The position numbers and the translations under genes are program-made. Positions 8,720 through 24,561 of a stretch of DNA of 24,561 bases are shown here, one piece after another (positions within the stretch are counted from its first letter, which is position 1; the number at the start of each line of letters is the position of its first letter). The DNA comes from a virus. Taxonomy: Duplodnaviria; Caudoviricetes. The DNA is taken from the IMG/VR virus record IMGVR_UViG_3300030376_000668, positions 1 to 24,561 of that record, one strand, 5' to 3'. The notes under the pieces were generated by a model. The model worked only from the letters and a program-made list of their open reading frames with translations. It was not told the DNA's origin and made no database searches.

Positions 8720-8735
8720 CGGTAACATGTTACCA
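8720..8735. repeat. Palindromic motif cGGTAACATGTTACCa, copy 1 of 4
   Basis: Perfect 14-bp palindrome, intergenic, 2 nt after a stop codon. Confidence 0.95.
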
Positions 8736-9759: not shown

Positions 9760-9775
9760 CGGTAACATGTTACCA
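9760..9775. repeat. Palindromic motif cGGTAACATGTTACCa, copy 2 of 4
   Basis: Exact copy, 3 nt after a stop codon. Confidence 0.95.
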
Positions 9776-10376: not shown

Positions 10377-10392
10377 CGGTAACATGTTACCA
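10377..10392. repeat. Palindromic motif cGGTAACATGTTACCa, copy 3 of 4
   Basis: Exact copy, just 3' (minus sense) of the hammerhead. Confidence 0.95.
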
Positions 10393-10399
10393 GTTTAGG

Positions 10400-10454
10400 T
10401 TTCCGTTTCGTCCGCACAGGACTCGTCAGCACGGCTCTATACCGTGGACGGAAA
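10400..10454 (-). ncRNA. Type III hammerhead ribozyme
   Basis: Minus-strand RNA: UUUCC-GUC | CACGGU-AUAGA-GCCGUG (stem I) | CUGACGA | GUCC-UGUGC-GGAC (stem II) | GAAA-CGGAAA (stem III). All core nucleotides are present; predicted cut between 10447 and 10446. Confidence 0.92.
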
Positions 10455-10475
10455 AGCGCACCTCCGAAGAGGTGC
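10452..10475 (-). terminator. UUCG-capped hairpin, weak intrinsic terminator or 3'-end stabiliser
   Basis: GCACCUC-UUCG-GAGGUGC followed by GCUUUU; the short U-tract overlaps hammerhead stem III. Confidence 0.6.
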
Positions 10476-10497
10476 AAGGCTCTACGGGTTGAGCGGG

Positions 10498-10968
10498 TTA
10501 TACTGACAGCTTGCGCATCTCTTCAGCGATCATTTCGAGCACGCTATCCGGCACTTCGGAAGCGTCAAGCTTTTGCGCAAGTGTAGTCAAGATATCGCGG
10601 GTTTCAGACTCTTCTGTTTCTTCTGTCTCGTGAATGTAAAAACTGCAGATACCGTCTTTCAGGCTGAAGGTTATATCAAGGCCTAAACCGCCTTTCTCAA
10701 TATCCTTTCGCGTCTCTCTGCGTAGGGTTTGTCTCAACACCTTCAATGCTGATTTAGCCTTTCCACCATCCGCGTCATCATGTGCGCGTAATTCCTTAGT
10801 GGCTCGCTTCGCTTGGATGATCTCAACGGCGTCCTTCAGCGTGTCCAATCCGGTCACATTGCCATGCGCGTCAATGTTGATCACTGGTAGGAATGCTCGG
10901 ACGTGGCCAGCGAGTCGACCGTATGCCATTGCTGTGTCTGTGATTTGTCGTGTAGTTGGTAGTGTCAT
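10498..10968 (-). CDS. First early gene, hypothetical (156 aa)
   Basis: Start reassigned to MTLPTT at 10968 (GAGGAGG RBS); first ORF downstream of the sigma54-type promoter. Confidence 0.75.
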   Translation of the reverse strand: MTLPTTRQITDTAMAYGRLAGHVRAFLPVINIDAHGNVTGLDTLKDAVEIIQAKRATKELRAHDDADGGKAKSALKVLRQTLRRETRKDIEKGGLGLDITFSLKDGICSFYIHETEETEESETRDILTTLAQKLDASEVPDSVLEMIAEEMRKLSV

Positions 10969-10992: not shown

Positions 10993-11008
10993 CGGTAACA
11001 TGTTACCA
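10993..11008. repeat. Palindromic motif cGGTAACATGTTACCa, copy 4 of 4
   Basis: Exact copy in the 5' leader of the first early gene. Confidence 0.95.
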
Positions 11009-11063
11009 GTAGCGCACCATTTTGGTGCATGGGTAGACTGTCCTCCAGCCTTACCAAATATAG

Positions 11064-11079
11064 TGCAAGCTGCATGCCA
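11064..11079 (-). promoter_or_regulatory. Sigma54 (RpoN) -24/-12 promoter
   Basis: Minus strand TGGCAT-GCAGC-TTGCA versus consensus TGGCAC-N5-TTGCW; exact GG-N10-GC spacing; faces the early genes; predicted +1 near 11053. Confidence 0.8.
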
Positions 11080-11098
11080 CCTATAAAAAATCCTTACA

Positions 11099-11111
11099 AA
11101 TCAATGACTTA
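11099..11111 (+). promoter_or_regulatory. IHF binding site
   Basis: AATCAA-TGAC-TTA matches WATCAA-N4-TTR exactly, with an A-tract 5' of it; about -46 to -58 of the sigma54 start. Confidence 0.75.
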
Positions 11112-11118
11112 CGAGATC

Positions 11119-11226
11119 TGTTACCCTGAAATGATACCGATAAAGTGTTACTTTGTTACCGCTGGTGACACTGTTACTGTTACCGGTAACACTTGGGTAA
11201 CACATTCACGCTGCTTATAGGTAACA
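11119..11226. promoter_or_regulatory. Array of TGTTAC/GTAACA half-sites (candidate enhancer, CbrB-like)
   Basis: TGTTAC at 11119, 11146, 11154, 11172, 11178; GTAACA at 11186, 11197, 11221; variants TGATAC (11132) and GTGACA (11165). Confidence 0.6.
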
Positions 11227-11320
11227 CAATGCAGATTCATATGCTGAATTATGTAGACCAATGATGTTAACAGGGTTTACATTCACGTCCTGAATGGTCC
11301 AACCTAGACTCTCACACCTG

Positions 11321-11385
11321 CCTATTGAGAATCATTCTTGTTTGCTAATGAGAATCATTCCCGAATGCTAATGAGAATCGTTATC
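11321..11385. promoter_or_regulatory. Three tandem Fur-box-like sites, 23-bp period
   Basis: CCTATTGAGAATCATTCTT, GCTAATGAGAATCATTCCC, GCTAATGAGAATCGTTATC: 13, 15 and 16 of 19 matches to GATAATGATAATCATTATC. Confidence 0.65.
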
Positions 11386-11586
11386 GTTAACTGCACCGGG
11401 GGAGGGGCTGTGTCTGCGGCGATTGCGTGTGTTGCTACTCAGACACAAAAAAGAGTAAAATTAGAACTTAATATAGCCAATAGTTCTAAGCAGATAAACT
11501 GTATAGAAAACAAGGACTTAGTAGTGCAGAATCTGGACCGTGACTGTACAGTTTAAAGGACATTGTAGTCTTGTTTAAAATAATGC

Positions 11587-11615
11587 TTGACAAATCATCA
11601 AAAGTATGGTACAAT
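11587..11615 (+). promoter_or_regulatory. Sigma70-type promoter for the packaging operon
   Basis: TTGACA-17 nt-TACAAT with TG extended -10. Confidence 0.85.
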
Positions 11616-11630
11616 AAATAGTATGTTATG

Positions 11631-11713
11631 TCTTTAAAGATACTTTACCGTAACGGTAATGGTAAATTTTATAAATATATTATTAAAAGTTTACGGTAAT
11701 GCAACTTTAAAGA
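11631..11713. repeat. Bipartite inverted repeat around an AT-rich core
   Basis: TCTTTAAAG-N5-TTACCGTAA (11631-11653) and its reverse complement (11691-11713); a further TCTTTAAAGA at 11715-11724. Confidence 0.8.
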
Positions 11714-19492: not shown

Positions 19493-22400
19493 ATGACTGA
19501 TTATACTAAGACTACGGACTTTGCTGCAAAAGATTCTTTGCCTTCTGGTGATTCCAATAAGGTTATTCGCGGCACTGAGTTTGACACAGAATTCAACAAT
19601 ATTGCCACAGCTAGTGCTACTAAAGCAGACCTATCTAACCCTAGTTTTCAGGGTGATGTTTCTGTTGCTGGCAATATTTCAGTAAGCGGAACTGTTGACG
19701 GTCGTGATGTAGCTGCCGATGGTACAAAGTTAGACACAGTTGAAACCAATGCAGACGTAACAGACACAGCAAATGTAACTGCTGCTGGCGCTGTAATGGA
19801 CTCTGAGCTAACTGACGAAGCAGCTGTAAAAGCGCTTGACCAAGGTGTTGCTACTACTGACAGTCCTACATTCGCAGGTGCTACACTAGGCGCTGTTACT
19901 TACGCAGCGACTGACGGCACAGACGGACAGGTATTGACAACGGATGGCGCAGGTAATGCGACGTTTGAAGCTCTGCCTGATTCTTTGTATTTAAACGTCA
20001 AGGACTTTGGCGCTACGGGTGACGGCTCAGATCAAACCACGGCTCTTCAAAACGCCATTAATCACGCTTCTACTCGTGGTATTCAAACTATCTTCTTCCC
20101 AGAGGGTCACTACAAGTACACCACTCTGCGTTTCTACCATGACCAAACTGACAACACCGGATTCCAAGGCACTAATGTATATGTTGGTGACGGAACAACA
20201 GATGATTTTAATTTCGGCTGGTACATTGCAGACGCTTCTGACCTTACAGTAACAGTAGAAGGTGTAGAGCAAACACTCAACACTCACTACACAGTATCGG
20301 GCGTTGGTTCTGACACTGGTGGCACTGTTACGTTTACTGCAGGAAATATTCCTTCAGCACCCGCAGGCAGTACTGTTACAAACCGTAAAGGCGATGGAAC
20401 AACGTCAGAGTTTTTCTACAGCGGGACAGTTATACCAGACGCATCTAATGTTTCAGTAACAGTTGATGGTGTCGCTTCAACGCAATTTACAGTTGATATT
20501 GGTAAAAGATTAGTAGTATTTAATGCGGGTCATGAGCCACCTGCTCCTGCTAACCCCAACGATAACAACGTTGTCATTACCATTCAAAAGACGGTTAACA
20601 TTTCGTCTAACAACCGTGATGGTCGTGTTCAACTTCGTGGTACTGGGCGTCTGGCTATTGCAGATCTAGTAGGTCTTGATAAGAACCGTACTCGCATATA
20701 TGGCTCTGTTCTTGAATCTACTGGTGACGGCATCATTATCGACACCGACCAAGAATTCAGCACTCCAGTTGATGCTCGTAACTTTGTAGCGAAAGACTTA
20801 ACGTTCCTTGCAGACAATACGGGGCAGATAATTAAAGCAGAAAAGAATCCGGGCATGTCGTTTGACACCTGTTCTTTCAAGCAATTTAACCCTGCTGGCA
20901 CTGGTTTAGAGGTTCGTAACTGCTGGTTCTTTACAATGAATCAGTGTTATGTCGTGGGTCAGCGGTATCAAGAAACATATACAGGAGATGGCACTCAACA
21001 GACCTTTACTTATACGTTTGATAATCCATCTGCAACAAGCGATATTCTTGTTCAGCTTAACGGTGGTGCGTTAACAGAGACTACCGACTACACCGTAACA
21101 ATGGGGGCTACAAAAACAGTTACCCTAACCTCAGCAGGAGCTACAAAAGTATCCGACGCGATTGCTTTGTCTGGTGCTAAAACAATAAACGTACAAAGGA
21201 TTAATACCGGCGACGGCATTTCTTCTCAGTTCGTTGGTCGTACGTTTGGTAGCTTTGCTGGCCTATGGACTATTACGCAGTCTTTGGTTGATTCTTTTGC
21301 AAACGGTGTTCACTGGACTGGCGGCACTGTTACTAACCTTTCGATTCGTGATACAGCAGTACAAAACTGCGGTAACTACAACATATACGCTGATTCTGGT
21401 GTTATTCAGCAGATGTTGCTTGACAACGTTTATTTTGAAAACCAAAAGACACAGGGTGTTAGCTTTATAAAAGGCGACGGAACTGCGCCTCCCGACAACA
21501 GTGCAGTTATTAGAAATCTACGGATGACTAACTGCTTCATGCTTGGTGGTGGTACTAACCCAAGAGTTACAGGACCGTGTATTGATCTTGATAATGTAGA
21601 TGCTGTTGATATTGAAGGTATGTATGTTTTCAGAGTGCGTCAGTCATTCTTAAATATTACGCGCACTAAGAATTCTCAAGATGTTCCCGGTGAAGTTAAA
21701 AATAGTATTTTCTTAACAAGTTCTGACCAAACTAAATTTTTAGATTTAGAACCAACCGTGTACTTGTTAACGGGTATTCTTCCTAATGCACATAACTGTG
21801 TATGGCCTAGTATAAACGACAGCTTCCACGATACTACTAACAACATTAATTTGTTTGATCCTACAGTTGATGAAGGCTATTTGCGTAGCTCTACTGATTT
21901 TATGGGATCAACTGCCATTTCTAGATTTAGCTTTGGCGACACAACTGTTAGGGCTTTTCAAAACGCAGACTCTAATCAGCCTAATTATTTTACAGGCGCG
22001 TATGAGCTTAATTTTGGACAGGAGTATAAAACTTACTACGACCTGACAACTAACATGTCTGGTGGGTTGGCTGTTTACTTACCTGATACAGGAAACGTAG
22101 GTCAAAGCGAAGTAAATGACGGTCGGCTTGTGATTGTTAAAAACAACGAGGCAAGTACGTCTTCGTTGAATTATCCTTATATTAACGTTTTTAACAGAAG
22201 CAATCCTACTAGCGGTAATCAAATAGCTCAATTAGCTCCCGGACAAACTGGGCTGTTTATTTTTGATTCTCAAGACAGCGAAAAGTTTAAGTTTGTTGGT
22301 CGTACTTTTAATGACAGGATTGACTTATACGACAATGAAAAACTTACCTTTGGTCGTGGAACTTCTTCTGCTGCAGACATGGAGATCTACCACGACAGTA

Positions 22401-24561
22401 CTTCAGGTGAAAGCAGGATTGATACTCTTGCTGGTCTAACGCTTGACGGCATTACCTACCCAACAGCAGACGGCTCTGCTAATCAGGTACTAACTACAGA
22501 CGGCTCAGGTACGCTATCGTTTGCCAATGTATCTGGTGTAGGTATTAACGCAGTAGTAGACGACACTACGCCACAGCTTGGTGGTGATCTTGACCTCAAT
22601 AGTCATGACATTACTGGCACTGGAAACTTAGATTTCACAGGAACTATCAACACAGTCCTTTCTGTAGACGGTACTACGGAAGACGTGTTTATTACTGGTG
22701 GTGCTCCAGCGCTCGAATGGGTAGAGAATGACGCAGGTGCGGGTCGAGTCCGTTCTGCGCTAAGTAATTCTGTCATTTTCCATTCGCACTATGGAGACTC
22801 TACAACTACCTACGGTGGTTATGTCTTGCAGACTAGAGCGTCTGACGGGTCTAACAACCAAGTAGTTTACACGTACGACGCAGGCGCTAATGATCGTCAC
22901 TGGTGGGGTACTAGAACGTCTGGCGATGTGCTTATGCAGCTGGAGTCAGATGGTACCTTTAACGTCCGTGGCGGCGATGTGTCGTTTGAAGACTCTTCAC
23001 TTGTTGAGAAGTTTTACTGGGACGCAAGCACTGCGCGATTAGGTCTGGGAAGAACAAATCCCGCAGAAGAGATTCACATTGATGCGTCAATTCCTACGAT
23101 ACGCTTGCAGGATTCTGACGGCACTGATCAATACGCAAACATCTATCAGTCTGGCGGTACTACTAATATTTATACTCGTAACGGCACTGATTATGGTGAT
23201 TTCTATATTCGTCGCTATAACGGCACTGACTTAGATATTTCGTTCCGTGTACAAAACAACGGCGACATTATCTTTTATGGAGATGATGGCTCGACACAAG
23301 GCGTTAAATTTGACGCAAGCACCAATCGACTTGGCATAGGTACTACGCTGCCTAGCACAACCTTAGATGTTGCGGGGACTGTCACTGCAAATGATTTAAC
23401 TCTGTCAGATACACAGCCAGTATTAAAACTAGAGGACTCTGACGGCACTAATCAAACGCTAGAGGTACTTACGTCAGCAGGAGCGTCATTTTTGACTGCC
23501 CGAAACGGTTCTTCAAATGGAACAATTAACCTGCGTCGAACTGATGGCACTACCACTAAAAGAACTATGCAAGTGCAATCGTCAGGTGACATTGCTATCT
23601 ATGCAGACGACGGCACGACAAAAGCCCTCTACTGGGACGCAAGCACTTCACGGTTAGGTCTGGGTATTACGAATCCAGCTTACGAGCTTGATGTATACAG
23701 CACTATCCACATTGGAAACGACGGAGGCTCTGGCTTTTCCCATTCACGTTTGATACTAGACTCTAACGGTGCTGGTCGTGGGGCAGGAATATTTAGTCAC
23801 AACCAAGTAAATGATACAGAGTGGTTCTTTGGTAATCCCTATGACACTCCTGATTCATTTGCTATCAACAGACTGGCAACGGCCTCGCATTCAGATGCTA
23901 CCGCAAACAAGACCAACTCATTAGTCACTGTTAATAGCTCTGGCAATGTTGGTATAGGTGTCGTCCCAGAAACAGATTGGCACAGTAATTATACCGCTCT
24001 TCAGGTAAATACTGGCGGCGCATTAGCTTCTTACGCCAGCGGAACGACGTTCGGAACTGCTATATCAACGAACCAAAGAACAACTGGCGATACGTTTGTT
24101 AATGGTAATAAGTACATAGCAAATGCGGCGGCTCAGTTATACCTACAAGATAACGGCGGCAACCACATTTGGTATAACGCCGCATCAGGAACAGCAGACG
24201 CAACAATAAGCTGGAATGAGCGTATGCGTATCACAAGCTCTGGCAACTTGCTGGTTGGTAAGACTGGTTCAGCCTTTGGCACAGCAGGTACAGAGCTACA
24301 AGCTGACGGCGCTGTAACGATTACACGAAGCGGCTCTACTGGTGGCACTCCGTTCTTTGTAAATCGACTGGCTAATGACGGCGAACTTGCGGCGTTTTAC
24401 AAGGACACAGTTCATGTCGGTAGTATTCGCAGTCGTAGTGGCCTTGTAAGCACGATTATTTTAGACCCTCGAAGCGACGGCTCGGGCTTGACTGGTTCGA
24501 CTAATGGCCTGTTGCCAGTTGATGAAAATGGAAGTATATCAGACGATGGTATCGATTTAGG
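19493..24561 (+). CDS. Large tail fibre/tailspike (>1,680 aa, runs off window) with pectate-lyase-like beta-helix
   Basis: Not in track because it has no stop; I read this frame open to the window end. N-terminal anchor MTDYTKTTDFAAKD..I.G.EFD.EFN.I; NVKDFGATGDG..FFPEGHY beta-helix start; GNVGIG, ERMRI.SSGN and WDAST.RLG.G fibre repeats. Confidence 0.9.
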   Translation, partial: MTDYTKTTDFAAKDSLPSGDSNKVIRGTEFDTEFNNIATASATKADLSNPSFQGDVSVAGNISVSGTVDGRDVAADGTKLDTVETNADVTDTANVTAAGAVMDSELTDEAAVKALDQGVATTDSPTFAGATLGAVTYAATDGTDGQVLTTDGAGNATFEALPDSLYLNVKDFGATGDGSDQTTALQNAINHASTRGIQTIFFPEGHYKYTTLRFYHDQTDNTGFQGTNVYVGDGTTDDFNFGWYIADASDLTVTVEGVEQTLNTHYTVSGVGSDTGGTVTFTAGNIPSAPAGSTVTNRKGDGTTSEFFYSGTVIPDASNVSVTVDGVASTQFTVDIGKRLVVFNAGHEPPAPANPNDNNVVITIQKTVNISSNNRDGRVQLRGTGRLAIADLVGLDKNRTRIYGSVLESTGDGIIIDTDQEFSTPVDARNFVAKDLTFLADNTGQIIKAEKNPGMSFDTCSFKQFNPAGTGLEVRNCWFFTMNQCYVVGQRYQETYTGDGTQQTFTYTFDNPSATSDILVQLNGGALTETTDYTVTMGATKTVTLTSAGATKVSDAIALSGAKTINVQRINTGDGISSQFVGRTFGSFAGLWTITQSLVDSFANGVHWTGGTVTNLSIRDTAVQNCGNYNIYADSGVIQQMLLDNVYFENQKTQGVSFIKGDGTAPPDNSAVIRNLRMTNCFMLGGGTNPRVTGPCIDLDNVDAVDIEGMYVFRVRQSFLNITRTKNSQDVPGEVKNSIFLTSSDQTKFLDLEPTVYLLTGILPNAHNCVWPSINDSFHDTTNNINLFDPTVDEGYLRSSTDFMGSTAISRFSFGDTTVRAFQNADSNQPNYFTGAYELNFGQEYKTYYDLTTNMSGGLAVYLPDTGNVGQSEVNDGRLVIVKNNEASTSSLNYPYINVFNRSNPTSGNQIAQLAPGQTGLFIFDSQDSEKFKFVGRTFNDRIDLYDNEKLTFGRGTSSAADMEIYHDSTSGESRIDTLAGLTLDGITYPTADGSANQVLTTDGSGTLSFANVSGVGINAVVDDTTPQLGGDLDLNSHDITGTGNLDFTGTINTVLSVDGTTEDVFITGGAPALEWVENDAGAGRVRSALSNSVIFHSHYGDSTTTYGGYVLQTRASDGSNNQVVYTYDAGANDRHWWGTRTSGDVLMQLESDGTFNVRGGDVSFEDSSLVEKFYWDASTARLGLGRTNPAEEIHIDASIPTIRLQDSDGTDQYANIYQSGGTTNIYTRNGTDYGDFYIRRYNGTDLDISFRVQNNGDIIFYGDDGSTQGVKFDASTNRLGIGTTLPSTTLDVAGTVTANDLTLSDTQPVLKLEDSDGTNQTLEVLTSAGASFLTARNGSSNGTINLRRTDGTTTKRTMQVQSSGDIAIYADDGTTKALYWDASTSRLGLGITNPAYELDVYSTIHIGNDGGSGFSHSRLILDSNGAGRGAGIFSHNQVNDTEWFFGNPYDTPDSFAINRLATASHSDATANKTNSLVTVNSSGNVGIGVVPETDWHSNYTALQVNTGGALASYASGTTFGTAISTNQRTTGDTFVNGNKYIANAAAQLYLQDNGGNHIWYNAASGTADATISWNERMRITSSGNLLVGKTGSAFGTAGTELQADGAVTITRSGSTGGTPFFVNRLANDGELAAFYKDTVHVGSIRSRSGLVSTIILDPRSDGSGLTGSTNGLLPVDENGSISDDGIDL

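Follow-up and report, generated by a model that had tools for sequence, protein, structure and literature searches.

The closest described counterparts of the element reported here are the Pseudomonas promoters of crcZ, crcY and PP2810 (PMC6296734, PMC8871633), and as far as the available text of these papers goes they have in common with it a three-subsite consensus, the orientation of the sites, the IHF position and the distance to the -24/-12 box. The CbrB consensus has been given as TGTTAC-N12-14-GTAACA-N15-19-GTAACA (PMC8871633, available text). For such promoters a dependence on cbrB and IHF under carbon limitation has been demonstrated, and the CbrB half-sites resisted conversion to a predictive consensus (both in the available parts of PMC6296734). 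The phage version differs from these promoters in that it drives a protein gene instead of an RNA titrating Crc/Hfq, carries five additional half-sites as well as NtrC boxes close by, and lacks an adjacent cbrAB.

Control of phage genes by host regulators is already known for PhoB, which is an OmpR-type activator, and for CtrA, LexA and Spo0A. Cyanophages have Pho-box promoters under the host PhoBR system (available parts of PMC10976474, citing Zeng and Chisholm 2012), and these likewise wire a phage promoter to a nutrient-sensing two-component system of the host. Their targets are auxiliary and replication genes and their signal is phosphate, whereas here the target would be the first early gene, the signal carbon or nitrogen, and the control a sigma54 enhancer that stays inactive without its activator. 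The clusters of CtrA sites with lytic deferment in alphaproteobacterial phages, the Spo0A control of phi29 and the LexA-controlled phages (PMC9437464) are likewise cases in which phages have convergently acquired sites for host regulators, in many instances close to the genome ends and with a proposed role in lytic timing, but the regulators and signals are others and a sigma54/IHF loop is unmentioned in the available text of that paper. The virulent Pseudomonas phage YuA, which has no RNA polymerase of its own, uses a sigma54-like promoter, P015, with a mapped start (10.1101/2023.10.13.562163), to which the available text assigns no enhancer or host activator. The injection-stop region of T5 has eight DnaA boxes (10.1101/866236, available text), i.e. 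an array for a host protein in a terminal repeat, comparable to the slot adjacent to our promoter; T5 keeps one kind of site, whereas the phage family studied here exchanges arrays within a single slot, among them Fur-like, DnaA and sigma54 arrays. In the literature searched, mostly papers accessible without subscription, we found no phage promoter described with a CbrB- or NtrC-type enhancer.

It has long been asked whether marine phages in starved hosts lyse, wait or persist, and molecular handles on this question are few. A sigma54 promoter stays silent until an activator of the host fires it, so that a first gene behind such a promoter would tie the start of infection to the carbon or nitrogen state of the host, and matching carbon- or nitrogen-sensor versions would let marine phages read that state. 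We analysed a 24,561-nucleotide stretch of phage DNA (the window), a 24.6-kb record that is about 67% complete, so that a third of the genome is missing. The minus-strand arm encodes small early genes, primase/helicase and DNA polymerase, and the plus-strand arm encodes TerS (a small ORF named by position alone, with no family match), endolysin, terminase, portal and capsid. The promoter region sits between the early and late arms, before the first early gene, gp1, and has the following features.

11079-11064, minus strand: sigma54 -24/-12 promoter, TGGCAT-N5-TTGCA, 12/12 consensus positions
11052..11053, minus strand: predicted transcription start, placed by means of the Rfam CrcZ model
11099-11111, plus strand: exact IHF site, WATCAANNNNTTR, 32 bp upstream of the sigma54 box
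11119..11226, no strand assigned: half-site array of eight TGTTAC/GTAACA hexamers
11154..11202, minus strand: CbrB three-subsite enhancer, F1 (11202-11197)-N13-R1 (11183-11178)-N18-R2 (11159-11154)
11013..11029, minus strand: NtrC-type box, about +24 to +40, in the gp1 leader

The sigma54 box, the eight half-sites (hexamers starting at 11119, 11146, 11154, 11172, 11178, 11186, 11197 and 11221) and the N13 (11178-11202) and N3 (11154-11170) pairs are all found where the initial annotation had put them. With the sigma54 consensus as used in PMC4253122 (GG-N10-GC within TGGCAC-N5-TTGCW), the box is the sole strict match in the window, and it is present on the gp1-facing strand only (12/12 versus 6/12 on the other strand). 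The layout is that of a sigma54 architecture, for which activator sites about 80-150 bp upstream and an IHF site between are expected. Besides F1, R1 and R2, five further hexamers belong to the array, which also contains another three-site set in inverted orientation (11178-11226).

Boxes predicted in phage genomes have been described as unreliable (PMC10976474, available text). Our chance estimate comes from 150 simulated windows of first-order composition, which contain 0.033 strict sigma54 matches per window, the three-site CbrB consensus in none of the 150, and at most 3 half-sites per 110 bp versus 8 in the phage. The IHF consensus motif occurs 1.1 times per simulated window, i.e. at the chance level, and hence only its position counts. 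The earlier claim of an exact IHF consensus thus stands for the match and its place (1 of 2 exact matches in the window), but the motif alone carries no weight. A second IHF-like site is at 11508-11520.

The enhancer had been called CbrB-like, and this is well borne out, since three half-sites fit the published consensus in forward orientation on the gp1-facing strand (N13/N18) at crcZ-like distances. Relative to the sigma54 box the phage sites are at -117 (F), -98 (R), -74 (R) and -32 (IHF), and at most bacterial loci they are at -115 to -118, -95 to -98, -73 to -76, and -32 or -33, respectively. The end of the enhancer 74 bp before the sigma54 box and the IHF offset of 42 are both the modal bacterial values. 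The distance to sigma54 formed no part of the three-site search pattern, and among 30 bacterial matches of this pattern the sigma54 box is 73-86 bp downstream in 26 and at 73-76 in 21, with a cbrB-type gene adjoining 24 of the 30 (one of these is the query). The pattern occurs in 25 of 401 Cellvibrionales genomes versus 1 for the reversed control. A three-site scan of genome contigs gave at least 120 matches (25/64 parts), and among the 120 listed a sigma54 box is downstream in 5, one of them opposite in direction; all five are Gammaproteobacteria, four of them Cellvibrionales by title. Rfam CrcZ matches 4 of 14 scanned loci from the 30 bacterial three-site matches with 317-351 bits, and the remaining loci have A-rich tracts downstream that score below the model. 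In 4/4 loci the CrcZ model begins at a distance of 27 nt from the T of TGGCA, which would put the phage start at 11052.

A CbrA-like kinase is encoded upstream of cbrB in 3/3 marine MAGs, 43-52% identical to that of the CrcZ-bearing G376. The C-terminal, predicted DNA-recognition helix of CbrB is near-identical in marine Gammaproteobacteria, and CbrA/CbrB orthologues are present in marine Cellvibrionales. From the spacing and these marine cbrAB loci we conclude that the phage element has the geometry of a host crcZ promoter and that suitable marine hosts exist. A marine gammaproteobacterium with CbrAB, e.g. a member of Cellvibrionales, is the likely host; a host search by TerS in genome contigs returned no relative. 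The promoter layout may in this way hint at host groups for uncultured phages. CbrAB has been called unique to Pseudomonadaceae in the available text of PMC8871633; contrary to this, our data suggest that CbrAB with a CrcZ-like RNA extends beyond this family. Six loci (L332, L333, L335 and L421-L423; G002, G003, G005) have cbrA-cbrB, then a sigma54 promoter, then a AANAANAA-rich RNA. The carriers of this RNA are Cellvibrionales and another gammaproteobacterial MAG, and their CrcZ-like RNAs score below the Rfam model. We also observed that matches to the Rfam family P36 (L350, L357 at 1496-1556) fall on the sites for CbrB in the crcZ promoter, and hence the P36 model may describe promoter DNA, not RNA.

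The transcript expected from the promoter, and the early arm behind it, have the following features.

10498..10968, minus strand: gp1, first early gene, 156 aa, ATG behind a Shine-Dalgarno sequence at 10981-10976
10457..10476, minus strand: intrinsic terminator-like hairpin directly after gp1, 8 pairs, moderate T tail
10400..10454, minus strand: candidate type III hammerhead ribozyme, Rfam RF00008
6711..6739, minus strand: strong sigma70-type promoter before the replication genes, 11/12
11587..11615, plus strand: strong sigma70-type promoter of the late arm, 11/12
10994..11007, no strand assigned: palindrome GGTAACATGTTACC, copy 1, between the start site and the ribosome-binding site
10378..10391: palindrome GGTAACATGTTACC, copy 2
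9761..9774: palindrome GGTAACATGTTACC, copy 3
8721..8734: palindrome GGTAACATGTTACC, copy 4, flanks inverted in some relatives

Judging from its motifs and distances, the element is likely a working sigma54 promoter for gp1, predicted to be fired by the host CbrB through an IHF loop under carbon shortage. The host sigma54-RNA polymerase would sit at 11079-11064, CbrB would bind the half-sites, IHF would bend the intervening DNA and transcription would begin near 11052. Most transcripts would stop at the hairpin after gp1, and the hammerhead would cut the read-through RNA. NtrC would add a nitrogen input, as an activator where the enhancer holds an NtrC box, and with either sign at the +25 box. 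The likely benefit would be a strong expression of the first gene in starved cells. The 250-bp element is well defined and testable in standard Pseudomonas mutants without phage culture.

Since gp1 is followed by a terminator-like hairpin and the early arm has sigma70-type promoters of its own further on, including a weaker one near 9726-9698 that was seen by eye and recurs in relatives, the sigma54 dependence probably covers mainly gp1, unless gp1 governs the remaining genes. The initial annotation had made the first phage transcript depend on a nutrient-sensing system of the host, and this gains from the spacing, the joint conservation and the marine CbrA/CbrB, but it should probably be narrowed to mainly gp1 and does not extend family-wide. 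The hammerhead candidate is a full-length model match with 42.3 bits and E 6e-08, below the gathering score of 48.5, and its core is present in 6 of 12 gp1 loci checked. Hammerhead candidates are also encoded just downstream of a CbrB-type promoter in three other phage contigs (L266:2016-2068, L268:2143-2201 and L378:2298-2359).

We compared the window with 11 further first-gene loci, which together give 8 distinct sequences. The joint conservation that the initial annotation had proposed to look for is found for the contact bases of sigma54 (GG and TGCA 100%, spacer 59%) and IHF (WATCAA and TTR 100%, N4 66%) and for the core TGTTACCGGTAACA of the half-site array, which is invariant in 8/8, but the full three-site set in forward geometry is intact in only 2/8. 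The F1 hexamer is deleted in 2/8, and in 6/8 an NtrC-type box stands in place of the R2 region, the F1-R1 pair being shifted 20 bp upstream where F1 survives. Both CbrB- and NtrC-type sites are present in 6/8. The box near +25 is present in 4/8. The NtrC assignment is based on the dyad TGCAC-N7-GTGCA, which occurs once in each of 4/5 bacterial genomes (control 0) before ORFs that, going by their sequences, we take to be ntrB- or glnA-like. NtrC is thus likely a second input besides CbrB, going by these boxes, and it was absent from the initial annotation.

The invariance of TGTTACCGGTAACA also bears on the possibility that the promoter is of the sigma54 type but that its TGTTAC sites are bound by some other enhancer-binding protein of the host, by a repressor of the GntR/LacI type at TGTTACCGGTAACA, or by a factor of the phage. 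This palindrome is the most conserved element (8/8), recurs in a distant lineage and bears some resemblance to the GntR operator. The GntR (LacI-type) operator is a 16-bp dyad with AT outer bases, and the inner 14 bp match while the outer bases differ. A repressor is unable to open a sigma54 promoter, which counts against the GntR/LacI-type version. For a phage factor, the missing third of the genome leaves room, but the initial annotation had seen no RNA polymerase or activator gene, and this holds up, with no RNA polymerase or enhancer-binding ATPase gene among the 34 ORFs of the window in a PHROGs scan of the about 67% complete record. With the three-site spacing and the promoter distance fitting the cbrB-crcZ loci, we regard a binder other than CbrB as improbable.

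The phage family is large, with about 1,500 stored stretches, and is present in marine runs; RNA runs contain 5-8% of the words. We found no cultured close member, and among the matches listed cultured phages reach at most 42% identity for the terminase, about 35% for the capsid and about 51% for the polymerase. Our survey of the family started from 80 TerS loci, 65 of them with enough upstream DNA, the window being added and one duplicate dropped. The CbrB-type promoter is present in 10 of the 65 distinct loci, all within a near clade of 30. It is absent from 55/65 loci of the family, including 20 of the 30 near relatives and phages with identical TerS; one promoter-bearing phage has a TerS identical to that of three phages lacking the promoter (in a tree whose bootstrap had not converged). 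The promoter-bearing loci represent two alleles with different first genes. The second allele, which was found via TerS rather than by pattern, has R at -97, R at -75 and IHF at -32 in 3/3 profiled loci, and F with one mismatch at -117 in 2/3. Going by these distributions, the CbrB-type promoter is an exchangeable allele and not a family-wide feature. Several relatives without it have sigma70-like elements in its place, with scores that overlap (7-10 of 12 with the promoter versus 8-9 of 12 without). An SOS-box-like CTGT-N8-ACAG was seen upstream of the left flank in the promoter-less alleles L010, L015, L016, L025, L026, L028, L029, L032 and L033.

Such a patchy array is hard to reconcile with replication or packaging iterons near the genome end, for which the sigma54 and IHF matches would be incidental. 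The region does adjoin a likely terminal repeat, but an array that is missing from most of the family and co-occurs with sigma54 and IHF at fixed distances where it is present makes this explanation highly unlikely.

The layout is not limited to the relatives of the window. A viral scan for half-site, IHF and sigma54 gave 15 stretches versus 0 for the complemented control, and 14 of the 15 have 2-8 half-sites and fall into the clade of the window and five other lineages, where the layout precedes unrelated first genes. Of two sites for which the scan did not select, F at -117/-118 is present in 3/5 of these other lineages, and the middle R is present in 4/5. The strict layout matched six metagenome contigs, i.e. 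two cbrB loci and four contigs of the phage clade of the window. By the three-site pattern alone, a sigma54 box is downstream of 8 and upstream of 9 among 120 viral matches. A scan for NtrC box, IHF and sigma54, run without a control, gave 20 stretches, 9 of them of the clade of the window and 11 from six other lineages, the latter with at most one CbrB half-site each. These NtrC-only promoters (L441, L442, L443, L447, L452, L453, L455-L458 and L460) include some with 2-3 boxes, and most precede the first ORF. In L441, L455 and L457 we further observed a repeat with core TAACAAATGTTA and an upstream A-run, occurring four times, mostly before ribosome-binding sites of early genes.

The four GGTAACATGTTACC palindromes are placed at early gene junctions and are confined, among the TerS loci, to the gp1 clade; the leader has the order NtrC box, palindrome, gp1. 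In a divergent allele of the first gene (43-48% identity; two contigs, one event) copies 1-3 switch together to a CTAACATGTTAG core, and the enhancer retains TGTTAC despite the changed palindromes. Folded as RNA, the palindrome reaches about -4 kcal/mol here versus -0.3 to -1.0 in the divergent allele. Because the variant barely folds as RNA and the flanks of copy 4 are inverted, a double-stranded DNA site read by gp1, a candidate regulator, is favoured. Three other roles of the palindromes were considered and rejected or weakened. RNA hairpins would have only -0.3 to -1.0 kcal/mol in the divergent allele; a role as CbrB sponges is weakened since this allele drops TGTTAC there and keeps it in the enhancer; and against a host operator the palindrome is not enriched in one candidate family, being present in 18 of 121 genomes, fewer than the control.

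The operator model is itself weakened, since four copies of a similar TAACA..TGTTA core are present in an unrelated lineage of the NtrC type whose first gene is non-homologous to gp1 (relatedness probability 0.2%) and since the gp1 model lends no support to a known DNA-binding fold. gp1 falls into 5 representatives when clustered at 50% and has no convincing sequence match in Pfam, PHROG, ESM Atlas or PDB. A first structure model was too weak (pLDDT 50); the second, with mean pLDDT 79, has no Foldseek match at E 0.001 or better, and VIA-align lists no helix-turn-helix protein among the top matches. Its best Z is 7.1, to a helical bundle, within the range usual for unrelated helical proteins, and a winged-helix guess for gp1 appears without support in these model comparisons. 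We speculate that marine gammaproteobacterial phages have repeatedly built a starvation switch, in which a sigma54 promoter of the first phage gene responds to carbon through the host CbrB or to nitrogen through NtrC, and in which gp1, in the clade of the window, is a new kind of DNA-binding regulator acting on the four palindromes to hold or release the lytic programme by nutrient state, with sigma70, CbrB, NtrC and dual alleles partitioning starved and fed hosts. This wider scheme is possible but doubtful.

Next to the promoter there is a second variable region, which, like the NtrC box, the four palindromes and the hammerhead candidate, is missing from the initial annotation.

11296..11407, plus strand: slot with exchangeable arrays, bounded by a conserved flank (11296-11318) and a G-run (11398-11407)

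In the window the slot holds three 23-bp repeats (11322-11390) that resemble Fur boxes. Among 65 non-dereplicated loci in which both anchors are present (the left one misplaced in 4), the slot has at least two sigma54 boxes in 19 (7-9 boxes, on both strands, in 8), at least three DnaA boxes in 19 (9-13 boxes in 10), at least three Fur-like boxes in 8, other repeats in 7 and none in 12. With 2-9 sigma54 boxes on either strand in the slot of some relatives, such a box is not necessarily a promoter in this family; the single, oriented and phased site of the window differs from these arrays. The interchangeable host-protein arrays of this neighbouring slot, along with the denser packing of half-sites in the phage than in host promoters, fit an account in which our sites serve as decoys or as pads for end protection, binding sigma54, IHF and CbrB without any needed transcript. 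A decoy has no need, however, of a single box facing a ribosome-binding site and gene, or of an IHF and enhancer spacing that is exact in phase and maintained in unrelated lineages, and we give this account little chance next to a working promoter.

The data suggest that the slot is within a terminal repeat: of the 15 contigs that have an end within 700 bp from TerS, 7 start at the conserved flank, and a terminal repeat of 146 nt covers the slot in one contig of 35.8 kb, though assembly breaks at the border of conserved and variable sequence could look alike. The arrays swapped among relatives also include TTGCA repeats or GTTC repeats (array loci: window 11296-11407; L063, L064, L069-L072, L074, L077; L036, L043, L045-L047, L050, L066, L067, L079, L080). 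At the far end of the record an open-ended ORF (19493-24559, at least 1,689 aa) without a PHROG match is probably a tail fibre. The late leader contains, at 11631-11713, a 23-bp inverted repeat with TCTTTAAAG units that is conserved in relatives.
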